Positions 1,663 to 33,074 of a stretch of DNA of 36,271 bases are shown here, in pieces. The DNA lies in the IMG/VR virus record IMGVR_UViG_2695420676_000012; one strand, written 5' to 3'. Every line of letters begins with the position of its first letter. Within the stretch, counting starts at the first letter, position 1. The DNA comes from a virus. Lineage: Duplodnaviria; Heunggongvirae; Uroviricota; Caudoviricetes. The notes under the pieces were generated by a model. It saw only the letters and a program-made list of their open reading frames with translations, did not search any database and had not been told where the DNA came from. Both the position numbers and the translations under genes were made by a program.

Positions 1663-3342
1663 ATGAAAACTAAACTGTATTCGTATATTCGCTTCTCGTC
1701 TATGCGTCAGAATGATGGTTCGAGTTATGAACGACAAATCAGGATGGCGAGAGAGGTTGCGGCAAAGTATGACCTTGAACTGGTAAATGATTATCAGGAT
1801 CTGGGTGTATCTGCGTTTAAGGGTGCTAACTCCAAAACAGGGGCGCTATCTCGTTTCCTTGATGCAATAGGTAGATCCGTTCCTGTTGGTAGCTGGCTAT
1901 TCATCGAAAACTTGGACCGTTTATCCCGTGCCGATATTGTCAGTGCGCAGGAGTTATTCCTTTCAATCATCCGTAGGGGGATAACCATTGTTACTGGCAT
2001 GGATAACAAGATCTACTCGCTGGATACTGTTACCGCTAACCCGATGGACCTGATGTTCTCCATCCTTTTATTCATCCGTGGTAATGAGGAAAGCCAGACT
2101 AAGCGCAATCGTACTAACTCAAGCGCACTGATTAAGATTAAAGCCCATCAAGAAAATCCCCAGAATCCGGCAGTGGCAATCGAGGAAGTTGGAAAGAATA
2201 TGTGGTGGACTGATACCACTTCCGGTTATGTGTTGCCTCATCCTACATACTTCCCTGTTGTTCAGGAGATTGTGGAATTACGGAAGAATGGACGTTCAAC
2301 CGCCGAGATACTGGATCACCTTAACGAGACATATACACCGCCACCAGCGGTTAGTAATAAGAAGCATTCAAAATGGTCACGGGCAATGGTTGAAAGGTTG
2401 TTCCATACCCGCGCTTTGATTGGTATCAAGGAGGTCTCTGTCGATGGTGTTAACTATGAGTTAAAGGATTATTACCCTCGTGTTATTGATGATGCTACGT
2501 TCTATCACCTTAAGAAAAATATTGGTGCTAGAGCATGGAACTTTGGAGACAAGGAAGAAGTTAAACCGATCCCCCTGCTTAGTGGTATTGGCCTATTGAA
2601 ATGTGATCATTGCGGTTGCGCTATGGTTAAAGTGAAGGGAACGAACAAACGTTCTGACCAGTATCGTTATACATGTGATGCGACCCGTTCACGTAGACTT
2701 GATTGCGAGCATCCAAACTGGAGTTTTCGAGGTGATCAATTAGAGAAAGCTGTATTGCAATTGCTGGCTGATAAAATCTGGATTGCTGAGGACAAGGCTA
2801 ATCCGGTTCCGGCGTTGAAAGTACAGGTTGATGAAATATCACGCAAGATTGATAACCTGATTGCCCTTTCTGCTATGACAGGAGCAACGAAGGAGTTAGC
2901 CGATCAGATTACTACCCTCAATAGCGAGCGTGAAACACTCTACAATCAGATCAAGATGGCAGAAGAGGAAATGTATTCTGTGGACTCTCAAGGCTGGGAG
3001 AAGCTCGCAGAATTTGATTTAGAAGATGTTTATAACGAGGAACGACTAAAGGTCCGGTTTAAGATTAAGCAAGCTCTAAAGCGGATCGGGTGTAGCAGGA
3101 TTGACAGGAATAAAAACTTGTTTGTACTGGAATACATCGATGGAAAGACCCAGAGAGTTGTAATAGAAAATTCAAGAGGAACGAGGAAAGGACAAATCTT
3201 TGTCGATTTGAAAACTATCAATGATAGGCAGATTCTGGAGAGTAACGGGCTTGTTTTGCATCCATGTTTAGACATGCTGACAGATAAGAACTGGAAACCA
3301 GAAGAGGAAATACCAGGTCCATTACAGGAATTTGGAATTTAA
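1663..3342 (+). CDS. large serine recombinase (integrase/resolvase family)
   Basis: N-terminal resolvase catalytic motifs 'YIRFSSMRQ' and 'GVSAF...LFIENLDRLSR'; downstream Cys cluster 'CDHCGCAM...YRYTCD...LDCEH' (zinc ribbon) and coiled-coil segment; track ORF opens at 1648 with TTG, first ATG at 1663. Confidence 0.8.
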   Translation: MKTKLYSYIRFSSMRQNDGSSYERQIRMAREVAAKYDLELVNDYQDLGVSAFKGANSKTGALSRFLDAIGRSVPVGSWLFIENLDRLSRADIVSAQELFLSIIRRGITIVTGMDNKIYSLDTVTANPMDLMFSILLFIRGNEESQTKRNRTNSSALIKIKAHQENPQNPAVAIEEVGKNMWWTDTTSGYVLPHPTYFPVVQEIVELRKNGRSTAEILDHLNETYTPPPAVSNKKHSKWSRAMVERLFHTRALIGIKEVSVDGVNYELKDYYPRVIDDATFYHLKKNIGARAWNFGDKEEVKPIPLLSGIGLLKCDHCGCAMVKVKGTNKRSDQYRYTCDATRSRRLDCEHPNWSFRGDQLEKAVLQLLADKIWIAEDKANPVPALKVQVDEISRKIDNLIALSAMTGATKELADQITTLNSERETLYNQIKMAEEEMYSVDSQGWEKLAEFDLEDVYNEERLKVRFKIKQALKRIGCSRIDRNKNLFVLEYIDGKTQRVVIENSRGTRKGQIFVDLKTINDRQILESNGLVLHPCLDMLTDKNWKPEEEIPGPLQEFGI

Positions 3343-3379
3343 GCGGCCTAAATCGACGTATAACGAGCTAAACACTTTA

Positions 3380-3404
3380 AGGGGTACATCTGTACCCCTT
3401 TTTA
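3380..3404 (+). terminator. Rho-independent terminator (also candidate att-core palindrome)
   Basis: 'ggggtaca-tc-tgtacccc' perfect 8-bp inverted repeat followed by 'ttttt', directly 3' of the recombinase gene. Confidence 0.5.
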
Positions 3405-3415
3405 ATTTAATTGTA

Positions 3416-4414
3416 TTAAAGAGCCTCTAAAGGGCTTAAATCGAGTTCTAAGTCTTCCGGTGTTAAATCAGCTAACGGTGCATTCATCCACTGCGATAAA
3501 TCTCGTTCTATGTCTTCATCACTAATGTAGTTGTTCAGATTGATTGCGTTGGTATCATCAAAATACATTGGCTTAGATGGGTTGGTGTGGATGTATTCAT
3601 TGATGAATGATTTAACATCTTTCAGCTTGCTAATCGGTAGCGTTTCTGTGAATCCGCTATTCATTACCTTACGTGGGATTTTCTTGCCCTGAATATTCTT
3701 TTTAATCCCCATTTCTAAATCACCAGCTTTCCATCCAATGTTAAACAAATGTGAGCATTCAAAGGTGATTTTCTCGCTGGTGTGCTTCTGGTGTTCTCTT
3801 ACCCGTTGCATCGGATCTTTGCGAGTGGTAATTCCATATTTGAAAAACTTCTCGCCAACACGAATTAGATAAAAGTGCATAGGGCGCTGTGCAAACTTGT
3901 TTCTGATAACCTGTTTTCTACCATTCTGAATTGATTTAAGTACCCCCCTAACCAAAGGGCATGTTAACCCGCCTTGTCTGCGGTTATTGTGTAAATCACC
4001 TTTCTTGTGAATCTTTCCGTGGCACTTACAACGAAGAATTAGTTTAGTGTCAACACCCTGATAAGGTTCAGCCAGACCTAACACATCCCACCCTATCGGC
4101 TTGTAGAACTTGCGAGCGTTTTCTAAGTGTTCTTCTTCGGTAAATCTAAACTTCTTCTTAGGCGGTGATACTCTATCTTTGCCAGTAAACTGACCAGTTA
4201 GAACATGACTAATACATGGCGTTTTAACCTTTCCGTTAACTTCTATGCAAACTTTGGTGTTCTGGAATGGTTTCTTTACAGGAAGCACAAAACCACTGTA
4301 TAACCATCCATGCGCTTGACAAACTTTAATGATTCTGGTTTCATATTCGACCGGAGGGGTCGCACGTTTGCTTTTTGCGGTAAATTCGATATCCTTTGCT
4401 AAAGTAGTATTCAT
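3416..4414 (-). CDS. GIY-YIG-like nuclease domain protein (candidate free-standing homing endonuclease), 332 aa
   Basis: Central segment 'FYLIRVGEKFFKYGIT...RVREH...ITFECSHLF...LEMGIKKNI' resembles the GIY / YIG / Arg / FECS / Glu spacing of I-TevI-type nucleases; Cys/His-rich N-terminal part; SD GAGGA before ATG. Confidence 0.4.
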   Translation of the reverse strand: MNTTLAKDIEFTAKSKRATPPVEYETRIIKVCQAHGWLYSGFVLPVKKPFQNTKVCIEVNGKVKTPCISHVLTGQFTGKDRVSPPKKKFRFTEEEHLENARKFYKPIGWDVLGLAEPYQGVDTKLILRCKCHGKIHKKGDLHNNRRQGGLTCPLVRGVLKSIQNGRKQVIRNKFAQRPMHFYLIRVGEKFFKYGITTRKDPMQRVREHQKHTSEKITFECSHLFNIGWKAGDLEMGIKKNIQGKKIPRKVMNSGFTETLPISKLKDVKSFINEYIHTNPSKPMYFDDTNAINLNNYISDEDIERDLSQWMNAPLADLTPEDLELDLSPLEAL

Positions 4415-9800: not shown

Positions 9801-10578
9801 ATGAATCAACGTTAATATTTTCAATCGGTACACTAAGACCATACTTTGTATTTGTCAGATAATGGAAAATCTGGTCCACGCCGTTAGTGCTAGCCTCAAT
9901 AGCATTGGTTTCAAGGTTACGAATCTTTAAGCCCATAACATCGACCGCTACCTGGCTATTAGGCTGGAGAATATCAACACCAGCAGCCAAAGATTTGTCA
10001 TCACGACGTAAAACAATACACATGGTCGCAATGCCGTTACCCTGATACCGATCATCCCAATCAGCGCCCAAATGATGTTTAGCTAAATCCAATGCAGTGT
10101 TAGGATTTTTACCCGTGCGAAACTCGACTTCTAAAACTTTGCGGTATTCGTCTTTAATGTTTCCTTTATCGAGAATGCCATCACGAATTGTCATATTCTG
10201 GCTAATGAGAACGTTTTTATTATCGATGTGCAGTGCTTTAAAGTGATCGATCTCACCTTCGGCAATAGCAAAAATTTGTACCAGCTTGTTATTTTCACGC
10301 TGTGAAATTGCCTTGTAAACGCAGATTGCACCAGTTCGGGTAGTACCGAAAAGAACGGGTAAAACTGTCTTAGGATCGTTTGATGTTCCTAGTGTCACCG
10401 CATTATCTGGGCTTTGTACTTTAGGTGTTTTTGGTGCGCCTACAGTGGAAGCGATCAAGGTCATTGCACCAGCAGCCATACCGATAGCGACTGCGGTCAT
10501 AACAGAAAATGTTGCAGCAGCAGCCATCCCAGCAGACGCACCAGCAATAACCGCGCCTACCAATATTTCAAATCCCAT
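6832..10578 (-). CDS. central tail fibre / host-specificity protein (lambda gpJ-like), 1248 aa
   Basis: Size and position after a K-like gene; C-terminal ~110 aa ('DDHPFDRQIV...VIDMPAG...TGISVS') resemble my recollection of the lambda J receptor-binding end; SD 'GGGGGTG'. Confidence 0.8.
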   Translation of the reverse strand: MGFEILVGAVIAGASAGMAAAATFSVMTAVAIGMAAGAMTLIASTVGAPKTPKVQSPDNAVTLGTSNDPKTVLPVLFGTTRTGAICVYKAISQRENNKLVQIFAIAEGEIDHFKALHIDNKNVLISQNMTIRDGILDKGNIKDEYRKVLEVEFRTGKNPNTALDLAKHHLGADWDDRYQGNGIATMCIVLRRDDKSLAAGVDILQPNSQVAVDVMGLKIRNLETNAIEASTNGVDQIFHYLTNTKYGLSVPIENINVDSFLKVRKQVRQMDLHSNGACDPNASFKENLTSLMQTFGGVMFESFGRITLKLDAPDIVKHTFNEDNIMMGKVSLKTGGTNGYFNTINAMYQEPSIDYSEQMLRYPADAENDATIRQDGRIIAKDIEYRFVKSKAQIDKLASVERNKSRITQVISFMTTDAFTAEVWDVISVTYDELKLNNSLWRITAIDRSIDSGIAGMMTITATEYNSQVYTDLNYAATPDNRPTGLPDSMTVQKPTNFRIKATGETIHGKNVTLTWDAPEDFNRYGFQIDYRVSGSPNWIKLGQTSQQIFNINALAKDRSYDYRVCAFGIIARSEWVELVNQNPTVTYELPTPVIRIKNQGSTPGTFEGNDLIIEWENQQQLDVMINGEANKFSDLFEAYIIKVTNKAGKSIQYRTRDPESWTYTLDMNQFNGLSRELTVEVSVKGYNNSESAPARLVAINPQHKPMKGFSARGGFNTAFVSWADDVEHDYAGSIIQYATDNTFSDARAVTTNSVSHTSFDLADGDYYIRGAHYDIFGMDDAVWSEPYFMQMKSTISWDDQDKEALEDLIGLQDRLDETIADAIAQAGANADAKIDAMHKQITTETGQTVQASADTLKSLIATSEQASATKIDQVKAELKGDITKEVSASATTLKQAIATSEAASASKIDQVRVEMDGKIAGVNQEADVKIDALKGTINSKYNLAVNADGRVAGIHMSATNDPAEPTRIIFTADKIAVAPQDGSEVCPFGIEDNKVYLDNAMIRNAAIGTAQISDASITTAKIGTAQINGAHIQHAQIGTGHIIDGSIDNAKIGNYIQSYNWNGNDGWYIGKDGTCHFRHANIRGHLVADSGEMNNVTINSSCRILGMLDANQVRGDFVKVVGRSFPHRQPNWPDGAITVRVEDDHPFDRQIVIPAIHHNGSVRRGESSDHWDTCRLIVKKNGGVLYDRTATSGCMYSGVIDMPAGHGAVTMTFEVYCKGVNNYNPSAYISDLTVMVTKKAATGISVS

Positions 10579-10997
10579 TATTCACCCCCGAATCTATAAA
10601 CTTGTTCATAGTCAATGTCTGAAACAGGAATGGTCATCCAGATACCATCTTCTTCAACAAGGCCATAACCGGAATAATGAGGAACTACGGAATAATATTT
10701 GCGGTTTCCTAATTTGTGGGCTGTGACCAGTAAGTCGCCGTCCTGTAAATCATCAGTGACTAATTTGAAATGTTTCTTAATTGGTTGAAGGATATTTGAA
10801 TACCCGCTTAATTCTTTGCAGATTTTCAAGCCTTCTTCTTTAGTTGAATATTTTTTATAAAGAGAATTATATAGGTCAGTACCAGCGAGAATATCGATGA
10901 TCTTACATGCAATTAGATTGCAATCATTCTCGCCTTGAACGAACTCCTGACCTATTAAAGAATTGATGTAATCGGTGATAAGCCTAGTTTTTAGCAT
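10578..10997 (-). CDS. tail tip protein with NlpC/P60-like motifs (lambda gpK-like)
   Basis: 'ENDCNLIACKI' (Cys) and later 'VVPHYSGYG' (His); start set at the ATG with SD GGAGGT (track ORF extends to 11153 through a start lacking an SD). Confidence 0.45.
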   Translation of the reverse strand: MLKTRLITDYINSLIGQEFVQGENDCNLIACKIIDILAGTDLYNSLYKKYSTKEEGLKICKELSGYSNILQPIKKHFKLVTDDLQDGDLLVTAHKLGNRKYYSVVPHYSGYGLVEEDGIWMTIPVSDIDYEQVYRFGGE

Positions 10998-11043
10998 GTT
11001 GAATACCTCCATGCTGTTATTTACTAGGCTTAGGGAGAAGGGA

Positions 11044-11697
11044 TTATTTCTTCGATGAATGCCACTTGCTTTCCGATTGCCAGCGCCCGGTCCTTGAGAA
11101 GAATAGATCGTTCTCGTTTCCAACATAGGAACGGTGGATACCATCGGAGGCATGACTACGAGCGTTTTTATCTAGAACTTCCCAGATACTATTAAGCTGA
11201 AATTCTGATTCGTTTTTACACTCATCATCTTCATGTTCGATGTTAATACCGATGGAATCGACTACCCCACGGAAAACAGGGTAAGTGGTTTCAACCTTGC
11301 CCGTGTTGGGGTTAAGGAAAACCATCTCGATTTTCACATCGGATTTATCGAATTGCTTGTTTCGAATGAGAGTAATGTATTCTTCGCGAACGTTAGAAAC
11401 GGTTACGTTAATCCCGTTGTTGTTGATCTCCTTCTCTTCGGTATTCGATGAGATTTGAAGAAAATCACCCGTTGCGAGATACGTAAATCCGTTATAGTCC
11501 AAATCGAAATACCCATCTGTAAGCCGTAGAACGTCCCCTGACGCTGTTATCACTTCGATAATGTGAAACATCGATCCAGTGGAAAAAAGCTGCGGTAGCG
11601 TCAATCTAGACACGTTCTGACCTGTCTGGTCGTTGTAGACCTCGATGAAGTCCAGATTAGTGCATAGTTTGCTGAATGATTCCTGAATAGTTGCCAT
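11044..11697 (-). CDS. minor tail protein (lambda gpL-like by position and size)
   Basis: ~218 aa between the M-like and K-like genes; start ATG overlaps the upstream stop (TAATG); weak resemblance to gpL. Confidence 0.4.
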   Translation of the reverse strand: MATIQESFSKLCTNLDFIEVYNDQTGQNVSRLTLPQLFSTGSMFHIIEVITASGDVLRLTDGYFDLDYNGFTYLATGDFLQISSNTEEKEINNNGINVTVSNVREEYITLIRNKQFDKSDVKIEMVFLNPNTGKVETTYPVFRGVVDSIGINIEHEDDECKNESEFQLNSIWEVLDKNARSHASDGIHRSYVGNENDLFFSRTGRWQSESKWHSSKK

Positions 11698-12257
11698 TAT
11701 ACATTCTCCACTAATTCGAATTTCATCTTGCCAATCTGGGCGATCTTCCAATCGATATTTTCAGTTTTGAGAACAAATTCACCTTCTACGTTCTGATACT
11801 TGATCACCTCACCAGCCAGGACGTTTTGACGCAAGTTAGGGAAGAGTTTCATTTCACCACCTGATTTCACATCTTCGGTGATCGTGTAGATTTTCTTGTG
11901 GTTCTCAAACTGGATGATAGTTCCCGCTTTCAGTGTTCCGGTGAAGTTGGAGAGTCTTACCTTACGCCCACCGCGAGCAGTACCAGCAGCAGCCGTTACC
12001 ATCTGGCGTACATCGCCTGTATATTTTGAAAAGTAAGACAGTGGCACACTAAAAGGACGACCAAAAAGGTGACGTGCTACAAATTCTTTTACTTCGTTAA
12101 TATCCTGAGCCATGAAATTAGCTGTAAATTCTGCTTCATAAAAATGAATACCAGTAAAGCGACGCTGGAACTTACCAGAAATAGATTGCGCCTTGAAGAA
12201 AGGCTGTTTTGATTTAAGAGTAAAATCTGTGATTTTAATATTCTTGGATTTGAACAT
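11697..12257 (-). CDS. minor/distal tail protein (gpM/Dit position), 186 aa
   Basis: First gene after the tape measure; SD 'GGGGG' lies in the 3' arm of the 12263-12302 hairpin. Confidence 0.4.
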   Translation of the reverse strand: MFKSKNIKITDFTLKSKQPFFKAQSISGKFQRRFTGIHFYEAEFTANFMAQDINEVKEFVARHLFGRPFSVPLSYFSKYTGDVRQMVTAAAGTARGGRKVRLSNFTGTLKAGTIIQFENHKKIYTITEDVKSGGEMKLFPNLRQNVLAGEVIKYQNVEGEFVLKTENIDWKIAQIGKMKFELVENV

Positions 12258-14748: not shown

Positions 14749-15090
14749 TTAACCGCTTCTGAGTTTCTCAAGCAAAGATGGATCAAACATGTTCAGCATT
14801 GCCGCTTTACGTTCTTCTTCTTTCTTGCGTGCAAGTTCTTCCAGTTCTTCTTTAGTTTTAAAGAGTTTTTCTTCTCTAATTAATTGGAATTGGCTAGGCT
14901 TGAGTTTGCGTGCAGTTTCGCGTGTCATTCCTTGCGACGTCATATACATGGAATATTGCAACATCGCATTCTGCATATCATGAAACGCGGGGCTTTGTGG
15001 TTCTAAGTAGGTGTCGAAAATGTATAATTTCCAAAACAGAGTGATTGGCATATTATCCATTTCATCTTTACTAAGCCCCGATCGCATCAT
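14749..15090 (-). CDS. tail assembly chaperone, T-frame portion (probably expressed as a G-T fusion by -1 frameshift)
   Basis: Frame is open from 15135, overlapping the last 5 codons of the upstream chaperone gene in the -1 frame; lies between major tail protein and tape measure. Confidence 0.5.
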   Translation of the reverse strand: MMRSGLSKDEMDNMPITLFWKLYIFDTYLEPQSPAFHDMQNAMLQYSMYMTSQGMTRETARKLKPSQFQLIREEKLFKTKEELEELARKKEEERKAAMLNMFDPSLLEKLRSG

Positions 15091-15119
15091 TTGCCGGAAA
15101 TAGAAATTCAGAAGCGGGT

Positions 15120-15135
15120 TTACTTTACCTCGTTT
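15120..15135 (-). other. candidate programmed -1 frameshift window (G/GT-type)
   Basis: Overlap between the end of the 15120-15428 ORF and the open -1 frame leading into 14749-15090; no canonical X XXY YYZ heptamer seen. Confidence 0.35.
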
Positions 15136-15428
15136 TCAATTACTGCCGGATCTTGCATCAATGACGCTTGAGCAACCAAACCGATTAATTCACTGCGGAC
15201 GTTAGTATACAGTGCCTTAACTTGTTCCATAGATTCAAATACTGGTTTACCGTCTTCATCTTCAATACAACGAAGAATAGAACGTTCATCACGGTCATCT
15301 TTATCGGTATTGAAAACATGTTCGTTAAATTCTTTTACTGACATAGGGCGAGCATAGAAAGTGAATCCACCGATGGTCAGAGATTCGCGTTTCGGAGAAA
15401 GAGCTTTCAGCATTTCATTAATATTCAT
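15120..15428 (-). CDS. tail assembly chaperone (gpG-like), 102 aa
   Basis: Immediately downstream of the major tail protein gene; SD 'AAGAGGAAA'. Confidence 0.55.
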   Translation of the reverse strand: MNINEMLKALSPKRESLTIGGFTFYARPMSVKEFNEHVFNTDKDDRDERSILRCIEDEDGKPVFESMEQVKALYTNVRSELIGLVAQASLMQDPAVIENEVK

Positions 15429-15473
15429 TCTTGTTTCCTCTTAAGTTAATTCGATATGTTTATTTAGAATTGG

Positions 15474-15503
15474 AAACAAAAAAGCCACCCCGAAGGATGG
15501 CTA
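15474..15503 (-). terminator. Rho-independent terminator after the major tail protein gene
   Basis: Minus transcript 'agccatcc-UUCG-gggtggcu' followed by 'uuuuuu'. Confidence 0.55.
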
Positions 15504-16980: not shown

Positions 16981-19900
16981 TTACCCTAATTTAGCTTCAA
17001 TTGCAGCAAGACGTTCACGAAGAAGTTTATTTTCTTCGCTCATTTCTTGGACCGCTTTAATTAAAAGCGCGTTCACTGCGGAGTTTGAAATTGTTAAAAT
17101 TTCTTCTGGGTTATCAAGACCACCAATTTTTGCGGTTTTAACAGCTTCCGGTAATACCTCTTGTAAATCCTGTGCGATAATACCAATCTCATGACCTATA
17201 ACTTCTCGGTCATTAAGAGATTTAACTTTATCGTAGGTTTTAACTTTGAGTTTATTTACCTTATCCACCGCATTTTCTTCGTAATCTTCAACATTAATTT
17301 TCAGACGACCATCGGAACGAATATAAACATCGTTAAAGTTACCATTACCAGGAGAATAGAAAGTACCATCATGATGAAATTCAAACACCGCTTGAGGATG
17401 ACCAGCCGCTGGCGATGCCTCCGCAGATCCAACGCGAATAATTGCTTGCCCCCAATTTTGAGGAACACGACGCATACCAAAATCGACGGCAGTTGTATAC
17501 CCTTGATTGGTGATTAAACTTCTTCCTTTAATAATTGGATAATAGCTATCTGGTCCTACATAACCATGATCGACAAATATCGGCGCTTCTAATCCCCATT
17601 GATCGCCCCAACCTCCAGATTGGCTAGCAGTCCAACGTTCACCATGAACATAGAATCGAACGTTATTGACATGAGTCATTTCGACACCTTTTGGACTTAG
17701 CGCGATATCACCCGCGTTTGTAATATTGATAGCAGCATTAGTAGCATAGCTATAGAACGCTAATCCATTATCAGCACCACCTTTACCGATATACCAGTTG
17801 TTATTATCAGCACAAGTACCCAGCAAATATATAGACGAATCACCCGTTTCGGCATTCATGACGATTGCGTCAGAACCACGATTAACTTTAAGTTTCCCGA
17901 AGAAGGTGTTTTTAATGGTATTATCACCCAATCGTTCAAATTCTGCGAAAAATCCTTTTGAGTCACGAAGACTTAAAACGTTATTTCGACCTGTATTGCT
18001 TGCCCCCCAATGGACGAGTTCCATATAGTCCATAGATTGACGAGAACCAGCTTTAAAGAAAAGGTTGTCTTCAAGACGGGTACTACCATCAATTCCGAGA
18101 TGCAAACAACGAGCGGTTGCAGTACCACCTAAATACAATCCACCGTCCGCAAAATCATAGCTGAATGGTCTGCGATTATTCCAACTACCAAAAGAATCTT
18201 TTAAATCGGTAGTAAGAATATGGAAGCTAGAACCATCATTGCGTAAAATCAAACCATAGTTACCACCTTTGACAGCCAAACGAGCATTTTCAGATAATGC
18301 AACTTCGCTATTCATTACAATTTTCTGGCCTTTACCGCCAGTAATATGCAATTCACCATCTTCAATCAGGTTTATAGAGTTTTGACCGTTATCGTTCCAC
18401 CAAATAAAATCTTTGGTTGTTCCATCACCAAAACCAAACCAACCATTACGAACATCTTGTCCAGTGCGATAATCCATGAAATTAAAATGACTTGATTCGT
18501 TTGGTCCTCGACGAATATCAATACCAGAATTTCCAGTAACACCGCCATCCAATGTTAATTTCTTGACATGTAACCCGGATGTTGCTGTCAGCAATAATTC
18601 CTGATTTGTATCTTCGTATCCAGTAGCAAGACGATATGCGTTATCATCAACTGTCTCATGCCAGATAGTGGCAGGAGCAGAACTACGGAAGCGACGCAAC
18701 ATTTTCTTAGCATTTGTTTGCTGTTCGTTCAAATGCTCAATGTCGTATTGGCCTTGATGGTTTCCAGCAAAATTTAACGTTCCACGGTTGCTAAAGTTAT
18801 TGAACGATGAAATGTTAAGAGCATCAAAAATTTCATCTGCAACAGGTTTTTCACCACCCAGATATTCAGGAGTATCCAACAGGTTTAAAGAAACACCACC
18901 GGAAGAAACTTGATATTCTGCTAAAACAAATCCTGTATGTGCACCGTAGTAAGCGTAAAGATCGTAATTGTCGCCATCGGTTGGAATAGCGCAAAAATGT
19001 TGTTCATGATGCCAAATAGTATAATACGCATTGAATACAACACCTTTCGGGCTATTGTTGCCGCATCGAATCACCAATTCGATAATATTGGCTTGTCCAT
19101 TATGTCCTACGTTATAACCGTTACCACCAACCAAACGGATCTTAGCCGTGCGACCGTGTTGTTGTGGCATTGTCAAAGTGCCTAGTTTAAACCAACCACC
19201 CTCGATACCAAAATTAAGCGTCTTCTGGAACAGTCGGTCAATTTCTGCTTTCGAATATGCGCCAATTTCAGCCGGAGTAGGTTTATCACCTTCATGATAC
19301 ATGCGGTGAGAATATGCCAAATGTCCCAATTCATCATAGCCGTATGTTCTTACCGTATGAACCGGATTAGACCCATAAGTGAACTCAAAACCACGAGCAT
19401 GATTAACGCCGGATGGGTGCGGAACATGCAAGATCATTGCAATATGACCCGCCAGGTCATTCATGCGAAATGCACCAAAGTAATCAAGATTAAGAGCACT
19501 CGGATCATCAAAAGGGTTTGCGGTCTTAGACAGCAAATAGCCATCAGTGCAAGTGTTTACGTGCTTTTTGATGTACTTGCCATCACTTGATCCATCGGCT
19601 GCATCAATACGGCTTTCTAAACGTGCAAGTTCGGAATCAGTGTAAGACTTGTTATTGTCAACTTTGCTATGAATTGCTGAATTTTTGGCTTCAACATCAC
19701 GGGTTAATGCTGCGACGTTATCCGCTGCCTCTTGCTTATTGGCTGCAATCACACCAGTAAGGTTATTGTAGGTGTCAGTTAACTGATTTTCCGCATAGGC
19801 GTGATTTGCTGCGATAGTGCGGTCAGTTTCTGCCTTAATCAAATCAACTTTGTCATTGATTGCTTTGTGATTGCTTACGATGGTTGCATCGGTACGGGAT

Positions 19901-20391
19901 TTAATATCATCAACTTTTTTATTGATGCGGGTGTCCAGTTCCTGAGTTGCTACAGCAGCCGCATTTTTATTAGCGTTGATGGTATCCGACAATTCAGCTT
20001 TAACACCAGCAAGATCGGAAGCAGCTTTATTTTTATTGGCCTCGATTGTCGCGTCGGTTTCGCGTTTAATTACATCAACTTTATTGTTAATTTCTGCGTG
20101 ATTTGCTGCGATGGTTGCATCAGTAGTTTGTTTAATTTCATCTACTTTAGCGTGAATATTGCGGCCATTTACTGCAATTGTGCTATCCAATTCTTGTTTG
20201 TTAGCATCAACTTTAGATTCTAGTGCCGCGTGAGTTTCAGGAGAAACAGAGATTTGAACTACTTCATGATCTCGGTCTTTGGTAAAAATAACATGGTCTT
20301 TAAGGTTGATTGCTACCTCACCGACCTGTAATTGTTCCGGCGTTGGCTTTTTGCCAGAAACATTAGTTCGTTTAAATTGGATTGATTGCAT
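16981..20391 (-). CDS. tail fibre with C-terminal intramolecular chaperone (peptidase S74-type) domain, 1136 aa
   Basis: C-terminal 'SDGRLK...GIIAQDLQEVLPEAV...LLRERLAAIEAKLG' matches the autoproteolytic chaperone module of T5 L-shaped fibre / endosialidase-type fibres; N-terminal ~22-aa 'KVD.IK..TDATI.ANH' repeats; SD 'GAGGTGA'. Confidence 0.8.
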   Translation of the reverse strand: MQSIQFKRTNVSGKKPTPEQLQVGEVAINLKDHVIFTKDRDHEVVQISVSPETHAALESKVDANKQELDSTIAVNGRNIHAKVDEIKQTTDATIAANHAEINNKVDVIKRETDATIEANKNKAASDLAGVKAELSDTINANKNAAAVATQELDTRINKKVDDIKSRTDATIVSNHKAINDKVDLIKAETDRTIAANHAYAENQLTDTYNNLTGVIAANKQEAADNVAALTRDVEAKNSAIHSKVDNNKSYTDSELARLESRIDAADGSSDGKYIKKHVNTCTDGYLLSKTANPFDDPSALNLDYFGAFRMNDLAGHIAMILHVPHPSGVNHARGFEFTYGSNPVHTVRTYGYDELGHLAYSHRMYHEGDKPTPAEIGAYSKAEIDRLFQKTLNFGIEGGWFKLGTLTMPQQHGRTAKIRLVGGNGYNVGHNGQANIIELVIRCGNNSPKGVVFNAYYTIWHHEQHFCAIPTDGDNYDLYAYYGAHTGFVLAEYQVSSGGVSLNLLDTPEYLGGEKPVADEIFDALNISSFNNFSNRGTLNFAGNHQGQYDIEHLNEQQTNAKKMLRRFRSSAPATIWHETVDDNAYRLATGYEDTNQELLLTATSGLHVKKLTLDGGVTGNSGIDIRRGPNESSHFNFMDYRTGQDVRNGWFGFGDGTTKDFIWWNDNGQNSINLIEDGELHITGGKGQKIVMNSEVALSENARLAVKGGNYGLILRNDGSSFHILTTDLKDSFGSWNNRRPFSYDFADGGLYLGGTATARCLHLGIDGSTRLEDNLFFKAGSRQSMDYMELVHWGASNTGRNNVLSLRDSKGFFAEFERLGDNTIKNTFFGKLKVNRGSDAIVMNAETGDSSIYLLGTCADNNNWYIGKGGADNGLAFYSYATNAAINITNAGDIALSPKGVEMTHVNNVRFYVHGERWTASQSGGWGDQWGLEAPIFVDHGYVGPDSYYPIIKGRSLITNQGYTTAVDFGMRRVPQNWGQAIIRVGSAEASPAAGHPQAVFEFHHDGTFYSPGNGNFNDVYIRSDGRLKINVEDYEENAVDKVNKLKVKTYDKVKSLNDREVIGHEIGIIAQDLQEVLPEAVKTAKIGGLDNPEEILTISNSAVNALLIKAVQEMSEENKLLRERLAAIEAKLG

Positions 20392-22200: not shown

Positions 22201-24201
22201 TCATTCAGCGGAGATGTGAAGAACTTTCAGGGCTTCCGGCTGTGCTACAACGTAGTCCAAATCTACAAAGATACGAGGCACTACCGCACCACGATCCCTA
22301 TATGTAGTTAGATCCATGTCGAGTTCCAGACCTCCCCACTCACCGATAGTAATACCGGAGAAGTCACCCAGAACGATGTGGTCTGCCGGGATAACGCCAG
22401 AAGTAACTACTTCGTAACCAGCCAGTTTGCCGTTTTCGATGATATAACCGGAAACGCCGTTATCTTTCAGGGTAGATTCCAGTTCAGCAGCAGTTGCACC
22501 GCTCATTGCAAACTTGATCGCCTGAGCAGGAACGCCAGCGTCGGTCAGTGCTGCAATTTCTTTCAGGAAGTCTTTATAAGAGAAAGCAGCTTTCTTGGTA
22601 ACGCGGCTAGCGTCTACCAGTTGCTTAACCAGACCAGCCGGACCACGAGCATTTTCTTTATCAGACAGAATCAGTTGTTCCAGTTTGATACGAACAGCTT
22701 TGTTAATGTGATCAGTGATCAGGGTAGCGATGCCCGGAACGGTTTTCAGCGACTGACGGCTGATCGGGTTGCCACCAGCAAAAGTTTTCGGAGACAGTTT
22801 CACGTTCGCAAATTCAGCTTTGCTTTCCGGTGCAGCACCGTTTTCATCAACGAAGCCGAAAGCGTCAACGCTGGAAGCGGTCATTTTTGGAATAGCGGTC
22901 GGGGAGTTCAAGCCACTGTAAACAGTCACACCCAGACGACCCAGAACAGATTCCGGCATCAGCATTTCGATGTAGGATTCAGTCATCAGTTTTTCGTCAG
23001 TTACAGCGGTCAGAGTAGTTTTGGTGTTACCATCAGCAGCAGCACGCAGAGCAGCAGCCGGAACGAATACAGAGCCACCACGAGCAGCACGACCACGCTG
23101 CATCGCAGCACCAGCAGCCATAGAGGAATATTCAGCTTCGTTAGCACCCAGAGCAGCACCATCTACCAGAGAGCGAATTACGTTGTTCAGGTCAAAAGTT
23201 TTTTCCATTTTAGAGTCCTTAATTTGTTCGTTATTACGTTGAGCATTGACGAGATTATTTAGTGCCTTAGTGCGGAATGCTTCCGGCGTCATGTCTTTAA
23301 TTGCCAATGCGCGTTTCAATTCTTCGTCATCAATATTTAGTTCGCGTGCAATTTCGCGAATTTCTAATTCGTCTTCTTCGGAACGTTCAGCCACTTCTTC
23401 GATTTTTTCTTCTTCAACCGGAGCAGCTTCACGTTCTTCTTTTATTTCTTCTTCCCGAACAGTTGAACTATCATCATCAACACTTTCAGGATGTTCAGCG
23501 TCTTTTCCGTCTTCGAGATTTTCATCTTCTTTATTCTCTTCAACTTGGCGCTCTTGAGTTTCTTCAACTTCCGATTCTTTAATTTCTTCTACCGGAGTTT
23601 CTTCAACCTGAGCGGATTCTTGTTCTTCTTTGATTTCTTCAATTTGTTCTTTAGTCATATCGCGTTTAGCCTCCAAATTAACTGTGATAGTATTTAGAGA
23701 GCGATTTAAACCGACCGTATCGTCAGCAGGAACGGTGACAAATGAGAGTTCATAGGGCGCCCACTTAGTAACAATCAATTGCCCTTTGGCGTAATCGATG
23801 TGATATTCTTTAATGTCATAGCCGACAGAAATTTTTTCCATCGTACCTTCAATGACTTTATTGCGAATATCATTAGCCAAAGTGCCATGCTTAGAGAATT
23901 TAACCAGAGCACGACCTACGTTATCCGCATCGATTCGAGCGTCGCAGACTACACCTAAATGATTATCGAAATTATGATTGAACAGCAACGGAGCGTTATT
24001 ATTCAGACGAGACAGATCAACCGCTTCCGGTGTATGTACCAGAATTTCATCTAGTACCACCATCTCTTGATTTTGCTCATCCCAGAATTGGCGCTGATAC
24101 GGCTGTTCACTGGAGAAAGCAATTTCAAATTCGTATTGATCGTTATGCCCTTCGTTAATAACTCCACCGTAACCGTTAAGATCGCGGCGAAATTTAAGCA
24201 T
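22201..24201 (-). CDS. prohead protease (HK97/S78-like) - acidic scaffold-like linker - major capsid protein fusion, 666 aa
   Basis: N-terminal ~160 aa ends with protease-like 'ELSFVTVPAD'; E/D-rich linker (~residues 180-290); C-terminal ~350 aa Ala/Gly-rich capsid-like domain; between portal and connector genes. Confidence 0.7.
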   Translation of the reverse strand: MLKFRRDLNGYGGVINEGHNDQYEFEIAFSSEQPYQRQFWDEQNQEMVVLDEILVHTPEAVDLSRLNNNAPLLFNHNFDNHLGVVCDARIDADNVGRALVKFSKHGTLANDIRNKVIEGTMEKISVGYDIKEYHIDYAKGQLIVTKWAPYELSFVTVPADDTVGLNRSLNTITVNLEAKRDMTKEQIEEIKEEQESAQVEETPVEEIKESEVEETQERQVEENKEDENLEDGKDAEHPESVDDDSSTVREEEIKEEREAAPVEEEKIEEVAERSEEDELEIREIARELNIDDEELKRALAIKDMTPEAFRTKALNNLVNAQRNNEQIKDSKMEKTFDLNNVIRSLVDGAALGANEAEYSSMAAGAAMQRGRAARGGSVFVPAAALRAAADGNTKTTLTAVTDEKLMTESYIEMLMPESVLGRLGVTVYSGLNSPTAIPKMTASSVDAFGFVDENGAAPESKAEFANVKLSPKTFAGGNPISRQSLKTVPGIATLITDHINKAVRIKLEQLILSDKENARGPAGLVKQLVDASRVTKKAAFSYKDFLKEIAALTDAGVPAQAIKFAMSGATAAELESTLKDNGVSGYIIENGKLAGYEVVTSGVIPADHIVLGDFSGITIGEWGGLELDMDLTTYRDRGAVVPRIFVDLDYVVAQPEALKVLHISAE

Positions 24202-31846: not shown

Positions 31847-32017
31847 CGCTTCGCGCAGTCGGGCTACGCCCTCCTAATTATCTTTTTGGTTATTTGTTGT
31901 TTTTAGTTTTACACATGAGCGTAGCGAATGTGTTATATAATATCTATGCACGCCCGATCCCCCGCTTTTACCCCTCGCTAAGTTAATGTTTTATAAAGAG
32001 TTTTTATCACCAATCCT

Positions 32018-32216
32018 TTTCAGGGGCAAAAATGAGGGGCAAAAATTAGATTTTCAGGGGCAATTATTGGCATTTCAGGGGCAAAAATGAGGGGCAAAAT
32101 CACTGTTTCCCAGAATTTCAGGGGCAAAAATAGTAGGTTTCAGGGGCAAAAATGGGATAGTAGAATCTTGGGGATTTTATTCGGGGGCAAAAATTCAGAA
32201 TTTCAGGGGCAATTCC
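32018..32216. repeat. direct-repeat (iteron-like) array: 9 copies of (T)TCAGGGGCAA(A)AAT core
   Basis: 'GGGGCAA' at 32023, 32036, 32057, 32078, 32091, 32121, 32143, 32184, 32206; exact 27-nt duplicate 'tttcaggggcaaaaatgaggggcaaaa' at 32018 and 32073; spacings 13/21/21/13/30/22/41/22 nt. Confidence 0.8.
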
Positions 32217-32408
32217 CATCAAATATTTTGATAGAAAATTCTTGTATATTATTTAATCAAAAAATCACCAAAAAGTGGCGTAAGTTAATGATTTAAAAAG
32301 AATTGTCAAAAGGTCTCCGTGCTATAATAGGTTATAAAGGTTGATAATCCTGATCTACAATTTTCAAACAAAAATTTTGATAGTCATTTCTCGCTTAGGT
32401 CAAGTGCA

Positions 32409-32437
32409 TTGACAACTGTCAAGGATTATTTTATACT
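32409..32437 (+). promoter_or_regulatory. consensus sigma70 promoter with palindromic -35 (TTGACA-AC-TGTCAA)
   Basis: 'TTGACA' (32409-32414), 17-nt spacer, 'TATACT' (32432-32437); -35 lies in a perfect inverted repeat. Confidence 0.55.
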
Positions 32438-32507
32438 TTTTCTCACTGGTGGGGGTTGAAATTTTCTAAACAGTCCCCATATAGATGATAAGCAAGAATT
32501 TCCACGT

Positions 32508-32537
32508 TATAAATACATGTGTGAAATGATTGTTCAC
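32508..32537 (+). promoter_or_regulatory. TATAAATA box followed by GTGAA/TTCAC hairpin
   Basis: 'TATAAATA' 32508-32515, hairpin 'gtgaa-atgattg-ttcac' 32521-32537. Confidence 0.4.
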
Positions 32538-32574
32538 TTCTGAAAATCTCCTGATTCACTGCTAATTCATACAT

Positions 32575-32600
32575 CACTGGTTAGATATACAGTGCTTTTT
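32575..32600 (+). terminator. terminator-like hairpin plus T-run in the leader region
   Basis: 'cactg-gttagatata-cagtg' followed by 'cttttt'. Confidence 0.4.
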
Positions 32601-32658
32601 CGGTTGAATATTGTACGAATTGATTAATAATTAATCTTCTCTTTAGCAATTCGTGCTC

Positions 32659-32686
32659 CCACTGATCGGATATACAGTGGTTTTAC
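32659..32686 (+). terminator. terminator-like hairpin plus T-run
   Basis: 'ccactg-atcggatata-cagtgg' followed by 'tttta...gggttttc'. Confidence 0.4.
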
Positions 32687-32707
32687 AGGGTTTTCTGACA
32701 ATCATTT

Positions 32708-32747
32708 TATAAATACAAGTGTTCAGAGCGAAATGCTCTTTTTTTAA
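32708..32747 (+). promoter_or_regulatory. TATAAATA box followed by hairpin plus T7 run (attenuator-like) before the 32781 gene
   Basis: 'TATAAATA' 32708-32715; 'agagc-gaaat-gctct' 32725-32739; 'ttttttt' 32740-32746. Confidence 0.4.
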
Positions 32748-32780
32748 GAAATTATTAATCCACATGTGAGGAATCGACTG

Positions 32781-32960
32781 ATGGCTAGACCTGTTAAGTT
32801 CACTCGTGAAATGATTGTTGATATTGCTAAACGCTTTTACAGCGACACTGAGCGAGGCGGGGAAAACTTCTTTAAGAAGGAAGGAATTGATAGAAGCGGA
32901 TTCTACAAGCTAATGAAGAAATACGAAATTCAGGTAAAGATTAACGTTCAAGTTTGTTAA
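32781..32960 (+). CDS. small HTH DNA-binding protein, paralog of 28966-29196 (~59 aa)
   Basis: 'ARPVKFTREMIVDIAKRFY...GIDRSGFYKLMKKYEIQVKINVQV'; start at ATG with SD 'GAGGA' (track ORF opens with GTG at 32766). Confidence 0.5.
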   Translation: MARPVKFTREMIVDIAKRFYSDTERGGENFFKKEGIDRSGFYKLMKKYEIQVKINVQVC

Positions 32961-33074
32961 TCCACTTTCACTGAGAATTATATGATGGCTTTAAAAAAGA
33001 AAAAGCCTCCCTTGTTGCAGCAAAGGAGGCTTGAAATGAACAATTAAAACTAACTTTCCACAGGAGTATTTATA

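Follow-up and report, generated by a model that had tools for sequence, protein, structure and literature searches.

The window analysed here, that is, the whole stretch of 36,271 nt from a Caudoviricetes virus (IMG/VR record IMGVR_UViG_2695420676_000012), carries on its minus strand, between positions 14,749 and 15,428, two overlapping open reading frames (ORFs) that we refer to as G and T. These ORFs very probably constitute a tail assembly chaperone pair of the lambda G/GT type, in which a longer product, GT, would be expressed by a programmed -1 frameshift at an A_AAG tetramer at the end of G. The pair is a new, unannotated member of the known G/GT frameshift class, and its proposed slip would be of the known A_AAG single-tRNA kind rather than a new mechanism. 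An initial annotation of this DNA had already proposed a G/GT chaperone pair with a -1 frameshift, a proposal that is supported by the gene order, the fold of G, the weak Phage_tail_T signature of T and the comparative evidence described below.

This part of the window has genes on the minus strand only; their order, from 5' to 3', is tail tube, G, T in the -1 frame, and tape measure. G and T are thus two overlapping ORFs on one strand between the tube and the tape measure genes, which is the layout of the G/GT class, and T, the downstream ORF in the shifted frame, has no initiation signals of its own. The features on which the argument turns are as follows.

15436-15442, minus strand: Shine-Dalgarno sequence of G, AAGAGGA (from the sequence; duplex with the anti-Shine-Dalgarno -6.0 kcal/mol)
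15120-15428, minus strand: G, a G-like tail assembly chaperone gene of 102 aa, with its ATG at 15428 and its TAA at 15122-15120 (ORF list, PHROG 344, fold)
15136-15138, minus strand: TGA closing the -1 (T) frame upstream, 3' of which the slip must lie (sequence, ORF analysis)
15123-15129, minus strand: proposed shift site G_GUA_AAG, with the A_AAG tetramer at 15126-15123 (sole 0-frame A_AAG in the accessible stretch; conservation)
14749-15123, minus strand: T segment that would be read after the slip, 124 aa, with its stop at 14751-14749 (translation, conserved post-slip peptide, Pfam Phage_tail_T)
15088-15090, minus strand: ATG taken as the T start by gene callers (no Shine-Dalgarno sequence; absent in some lineages)

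By sequence and fold, G is a tail assembly chaperone. It matches PHROG 344 (tail assembly chaperone) with an E-value of 3e-7 and the Pfam family Phage_TAC_13 with an E-value of 3e-4 (21.5 bits, under the cut-off of 28.8), and a sequence search of G against the PDB returned no meaningful match to any chain. An AlphaFold (AF2) model of G, built from the narrower G alignment (A1), reached a mean predicted local distance difference test (pLDDT) score of 80 and a predicted template modelling (pTM) score of 0.70. In the PDB this model finds its best match in 2ob9, the tail assembly chaperone of HK97, with a modest E-value of 3.5e-3, a probability of 1.00, a template modelling (TM) score of 0.55-0.60 and ~20% identity, and its matches among the viral models of BFVD include several proteins named tail assembly chaperone. 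T of the window weakly matches the Pfam family Phage_tail_T with an E-value of 2.5e-4 (21.8 bits, under the cut-off of 25.9), and the same family is matched by T of 8 of 14 relatives, with a best E-value of 1.9e-6. The tie to lambda is one of architecture and family profiles, not of pairwise similarity.

The proposed shift site in the overlap and its conservation

From 15135 the T frame runs for 128 codons to its stop at 14751-14749, with its first ATG at 15090, and it overlaps the end of G at the coordinates that the initial annotation had reported. That annotation had equated the overlap with the last five codons of G, which is roughly right; exactly, it comprises the stop and the 13 sense nucleotides of G before it, namely one base of E98 followed by the four codons of N99, E100, V101 and K102. 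Since a TGA at 15138-15136 closes the -1 frame, the shift is confined to 15135-15123. The string quoted earlier for this interval, aaaacgaggtaaag, has 14 nt (15136-15123) instead of 13, as its first base is part of the closing TGA. A canonical X_XXY_YYZ heptamer, which belongs to the typical picture of the G/GT class, is absent from the overlap, just as had been stated, whereas the Z_ZZN tetramer A_AAG before the stop had gone unremarked. The suggestion of a non-canonical slip site can thereby be made specific as the A_AAG in GUA_AAG abutting the stop of G. This A_AAG lies in the 0 frame and is overlapped by an AAA of the -1 frame. That frame, open since 15135, stays so 3' of the tetramer, which is the configuration of NNA_AAG slippage.

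The conservation of this arrangement was followed through 52 related loci, drawn from viral as well as genome collections and reduced to 14 lineages with G identities down to ~48%. In every intact relative the -1 overlap is retained, and the +1 frame is always closed by stops. Exactly one 0-frame NNA_AAG is present in the -1-accessible stretch of each lineage (14 of 14), in the following forms.

G_GUA_AAG: window clade, L036, L038 and L039
A_GUA_AAG: L031 and L046
G_GAA_AAG: L035, L042, L043 and L047
A_GAA_AAG: L050
A_AAA_AAG, the canonical heptamer, at the homologous position: L034/L040 (Buttiauxella) and L041

Among the Lys codons of these genes AAG is in the minority (27%), GUA makes up 36% of the Val codons, and a 0-frame A_AAG is found at 5 of the 1377 other G codons of the family. 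The -1 overlap kept in all intact relatives, the closed +1 frame and the rarity of A_AAG elsewhere in G together indicate that the arrangement goes beyond chance.

The site has also been altered in individual lineages. In the close relative L017 (3295-3315) three nucleotides inserted at the shift site (GUA AAG UAG UAA ACC) turn the G stop into UAG and lengthen the T frame by one Val, and in L038 and the Edwardsiella type the G stop is lost, AAG being followed by AAA. Both A_AAG and the -1 frame relation are preserved through the L017 insertion and the L038 stop loss. The G stop follows A_AAG directly in 8 of the 14 lineages, one codon later in five, and 4, 6 or 11 codons later in three; as the stop does not always adjoin A_AAG, an adjacent stop is not essential.

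Translation of T and alternative explanations

The peptide encoded after the proposed slip is conserved from its first residues onwards. Across 16 sequences from the 14 lineages it follows the pattern x-N-[PW]-x-x-x-F-x-[YF]-R-x-x-[ML]-R-[RKS]-G-L-[ST], and ten codons of it lie upstream of the window ATG at 15090, which is the first Met of '...RQMMRSGLS'. The initial annotation had named translation of T from this ATG as the case that would speak against frameshifting. By one such route, ribosomes ending at the G stop (15122-15120) would re-initiate at the ATG at 15090 or 15087, 30-33 nt downstream, and T would be made alone as a free protein of 113 aa. There is indeed an ATG pair at 15090/15087, Met is retained there in most lineages, all gene callers annotate a separate protein of 73-123 aa, and over so short a gap from the G stop translational coupling is conceivable. 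Against this stands the conservation as protein of the ten codons before the ATG. In the interval from the G stop to the ATG, substitutions among close relatives keep to the codon periodicity of the T frame: 10 of 16 fall at its third positions, and read in that frame the substitutions are 9 synonymous and 7 nonsynonymous, compared with 3 and 12, and 2 and 13, in the other frames, and 4 of the 7 nonsynonymous changes fall in one variable codon.

The signals needed for a start at this ATG are equally hard to find. No Shine-Dalgarno sequence precedes the ATG at 15090 or at 15087, where the duplex energies are -1.1 and -1.7 kcal/mol, respectively, compared with -5.7 to -12.9 kcal/mol for the neighbouring structural genes. 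In L042, L043 and L050/L051 the corresponding residues are Ile-Leu, and no ATG, GTG or TTG occurs for 31-38 codons from that position. The T starts annotated among homologues vary accordingly between three positions (products of 113-118, 102-105 and 73-79 aa), as expected of an ORF without a real start. We therefore consider it improbable that T is made alone by re-initiation, although re-initiation could take place alongside the frameshift in the window clade. Most likely, the ATG at 15090 encodes a Met within GT.

A -1 slip could in principle lie elsewhere in the 13-nt stretch, for instance at GAA_AAC (15137-15132), where tRNA-Asn would move from AAC to AAA and give the junction ...IEN/RGKVNP... 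(the slash marks the slip here and below). An A_AAC does lie within the accessible stretch, and A_AAA_AAC is used by IS1-type elements (PMC4066793). Nevertheless, GAA_AAC is not conserved, being replaced by GAA CAA in L031, by GAA GAA TCG in L036/L039 and by other sequences in distant lineages. Moreover, tetramers besides A_AAG, U_UUY, C_CCY and A_AAA are barely or not shift-prone in E. coli (PMC4066793), and tRNA-Asn in E. coli takes part in tandem slips only (PMC5009743), for which the partner here, U_GAA, cannot re-pair. A slip at such a position is very improbable.

To a similarly small degree we credit the view that the overlap is an evolutionary relic, with T neither expressed nor needed and G acting alone as the chaperone. 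This view draws on the failure to find a stimulator. It is opposed by T itself, which has stayed open and is maintained as a protein even in lineages with T identities as low as ~32-40%, nine of its residues being invariant and the Phage_tail_T signature present, and by the frame relation, which has survived an indel and a stop-codon loss. Transcriptional slippage in the window was rejected, as the A run has three bases only, and so was +1 or -2 shifting, in view of the stops in the +1 frame.

The proposed slip and its relation to known systems

In the programmed -1 frameshift that we propose, most ribosomes would read G from 15428 to 15123 and stop at UAA, yielding the 102-aa chaperone (11.7 kDa), and a minority would slip back by one base at G_GUA_AAG (15129-15123). 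There, tRNA-Lys with the anticodon mnm5s2UUU would move from AAG (15125-15123) to the overlapping AAA (15126-15124); base G 15123 would be read twice, the next codon would be GUA (15123-15121), and the T frame would be read to 14751-14749. The predicted GT fusion would comprise 102 + 124 = 226 aa (~26.5 kDa) with the junction ...IENEVK/VNPLLNFYFRQMMR..., the T side of which would begin with VNPLLNFYFR. Since a P-site tRNA-Val on GUA re-pairs poorly with GGU, the event would be essentially a single-tRNA slip at a tetramer or hexamer (NNA_AAG) and not a tandem one. The 0-frame stop lies directly 3' of the slip codon, and slow decoding of this stop may add to the slip, in line with the 'shifty stop' concept (Weiss et al., 1987, as cited in PMC5009743). 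On the lambda model, coating of the tape measure protein would fall to G and to the G portion of GT, recruitment of tail tube subunits would fall to the T portion, and a low slip frequency would set the ratio of G to GT.

The choice of A_AAG agrees with what has been reported for this kind of slippage. The -1 tetramers rank A_AAG >> U_UUC > U_UUU > C_CCY > A_AAA in E. coli (Sharma et al., 2014, PMC4066793), and A_AAG slippage occurs at G_CGA_AAG in IS1222 and at A_CGA_AAG in B. subtilis cdd (PMC5009743). Its efficiency varies with the 5' codon, broad-wobble tRNAs at that position giving more shifting (Atkins et al., 2016, PMC5009743). E. coli has one tRNA-Lys (PMC5009743), and the hosts of the present family are E. 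coli and other Enterobacterales.

Several results weigh against our interpretation. The RNA of 60-170 nt around and after the site is no more stable in the window than its shuffles (z +1.1 and +1.4), and the same applies to 13 relatives (z -1.5 to +1.6). Neither the window nor its relatives have a conserved Shine-Dalgarno sequence 6-17 nt upstream of the site; a stimulator of NNA_AAG slippage, be it a stable or conserved downstream hairpin or pseudoknot or an upstream Shine-Dalgarno sequence, is thus not evident here. In reporters, tetramers without a stimulator gave 0.147% shifting, barely more than the background of 0.112%, and it took a pseudoknot to bring A_AAG to 5.6% (PMC4066793); the slip yield in the window could be very low. 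The family assignment of G and T draws on sub-threshold Pfam scores and modest fold-search E-values, and when the alignments of G and T were compared as profiles with their lambda counterparts, the E-values, at ~0.1, were not significant (0.12 for T against lambda T in hhalign). A product of probabilities calculated from the rarity of A_AAG overstates the independence of the lineages, which are kin. Besides, the searches turned up neither a natural fusion of G and T in one ORF nor a record annotating such a fusion.

The closest known system is lambda gpG/gpGT, whose slip was described by Levin et al. (1993) and Xu et al. (2004, 2013, 2014), as cited in PMC5009743. Both systems have the order tube, G, T in the -1 frame, and tape measure, a slip near the 3' end of G, the A_AAG half of the site, a T without its own start and no evident required stimulator, and the T part here bears a weak Phage_tail_T signature. 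The lambda site, G_GGA_AAG, is one base apart from G_GUA_AAG in the P-site codon, and in the window tandem re-pairing is impossible. In addition, the stop follows the slip codon directly here and five codons later in lambda, and G has 102 aa in contrast to the 140 aa of lambda. Lambda requires only ~1 GT per 30 G (PMC5009743). Many annotated chaperone frameshifts are without a heptamer, and heptamers are typical, not obligatory (PMC10274946).

The IS1222 transposase and B. subtilis cdd sites mentioned above share with the window an A_AAG preceded by a codon unable to re-pair, and the low level of shifting at these sites relies on tRNA-Lys(UUU) (Licznar et al., 2003; Mejlhede et al., 1999, via PMC5009743). 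They differ in that the 5' codon is CGA rather than GUA (or GAA in the relatives), whereas the present site is in a phage chaperone gene and adjoins a 0-frame stop; a downstream structure or an upstream Shine-Dalgarno sequence was not found in the window. E. coli dnaX and the A_AAA_AAG sites of the IS911 type use the same slippery Lys codon, and the relatives L034/L040 and L041 carry that very heptamer. The dnaX elements of high efficiency, namely the heptamer, a Shine-Dalgarno sequence ~10 nt upstream and a downstream stem-loop, are all three missing from the window.

A GAGG lying directly 5' of the window site was considered as a conserved stimulator and rejected, as it is confined to the window clade and L038. 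At a spacing of 2 nt such a GAGG is expected to favour +1 and not -1 shifting, judging from the RF2 and dnaX cases.

We also entertain a more far-reaching idea, which we regard as doubtful. According to this idea, the natural series A_AAA_AAG, G_GAA_AAG and G_GUA_AAG would show that P-site re-pairing is dispensable for making biologically sufficient GT, and in the lineages whose G stop comes right after A_AAG (8 of 14) the slip would take place with tRNA-Lys in the P site and the stop in the A site, as a -1 'shifty stop'. The ratio of G to GT and tail assembly would then be tuned by the release-factor activity of the host and by tRNA-Lys thiolation, not by RNA structure. Independently of this idea, the site variants at one homologous position form a ready test set for the effects of P-site re-pairing and of an adjacent stop on low-level -1 shifting. 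Frameshift finders that accept X_XXY_YYZ only miss the present site, and the family makes a case for accepting NNA_AAG as well, especially beside a stop. The general picture of tail assembly and of frameshifting is unchanged by our results, the value of which lies in the annotation and in the natural variant series.

Neighbouring genes, the prophage family and its annotation

The genes and signals flanking the chaperone pair are the following.

15981-15511, minus strand: gene of the major tail tube protein, 156 aa (match to PHROG 158, major tail protein, with E 8e-20; weak matches to Pfam Phage_TTP_12 and Phage_TTP_11)
15473-15502, minus strand: terminator-like hairpin (AGCCATCCTTCGGGGTGGCT; hairpin 15502-15483) and T tract in the gap between the tail tube gene and G (terminator scan)
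14737-12308, minus strand: gene of the tape measure protein, 809 aa (match to PHROG 13674, tail length tape measure protein, with E 1e-66)

A homologue of the tube protein is named 'phage tail tube protein' in RefSeq. The hairpin between the tube gene and G is strong and GC-rich, with 8 bp and a T tract, and 39 nt of this terminator region are 95% identical to an annotated terminator of the T4-like coliphages vB_EcoM_G2494 and G5211. We surmise that this hairpin may reduce how much transcription passes on to the chaperone and tape measure genes, and that it may lower the amount of chaperone relative to tube protein.

The window represents a prophage of ~35 kb in E. coli. Near-identical DNA is present in 52 of 5,426 complete E. 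coli genomes, and one E. coli copy adjoins ycdY/ycdZ and carries a serine recombinase, a homologue of which is also encoded in the window. Members of this prophage family were found as well in Salmonella, Proteus, Edwardsiella, Providencia and Buttiauxella. Among phages the region has no characterised close relative: megablast against 50,697 phage records returned only the 39-nt terminator match, and tblastn of G gave one weak match. A scan of species-representative genomes yielded two loci only.

Throughout this common prophage family, G and T are annotated as unrelated proteins. RefSeq holds them as two separate hypothetical proteins, most NCBI homologues of G are named 'cytochrome', an apparent propagated misannotation, and the T homologues are called with the three inconsistent start positions noted above. 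No record joins G and T, and the GT product is absent from all protein databases searched; the predicted 226-aa GT as a protein-database query gave zero matches, a result that we treat as uninformative, as G and T alone do match.

Besides, several observations were made elsewhere in the family. In L030 (IMGVR_UViG_2925919700_000005; 3222-3700), G is cut after codon 74 by an insert 100% identical to IS10R/ISVsa5, and this prophage copy is probably tail-defective. In the window, a minus-strand ORF of 1136 aa at 16981-20391 resembles a tail fibre gene and contains Gp34 trimerisation and endosialidase chaperone (Peptidase_S74) domains; it precedes the tube gene and has the head genes on one side and the small head-tail and tail-completion genes on the other, a position unusual for a fibre gene in a siphovirus-type module. 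The capsid gene at 22201-24201 on the minus strand (666 aa) joins a prohead protease (Peptidase_S78) to an HK97-type major capsid domain. L033, a RefSeq relative from E. coli ETEC1703, has, at 22632-23402 and 31897-33072, a NUMOD3-domain gene in its tail module and a GIY-YIG nuclease gene near the recombinase, both of which may be mobile homing-endonuclease insertions; the ORF layout of the window at 10578-12257 suggests that the NUMOD3 gene is absent here. Lastly, L035 (JBEBQJ010000175.1) is a 10-kb contig with an enterobacterial-type chaperone pair in a metagenome-assembled genome labelled Sphingobacterium yanglingense, a label that may reflect a binning error.

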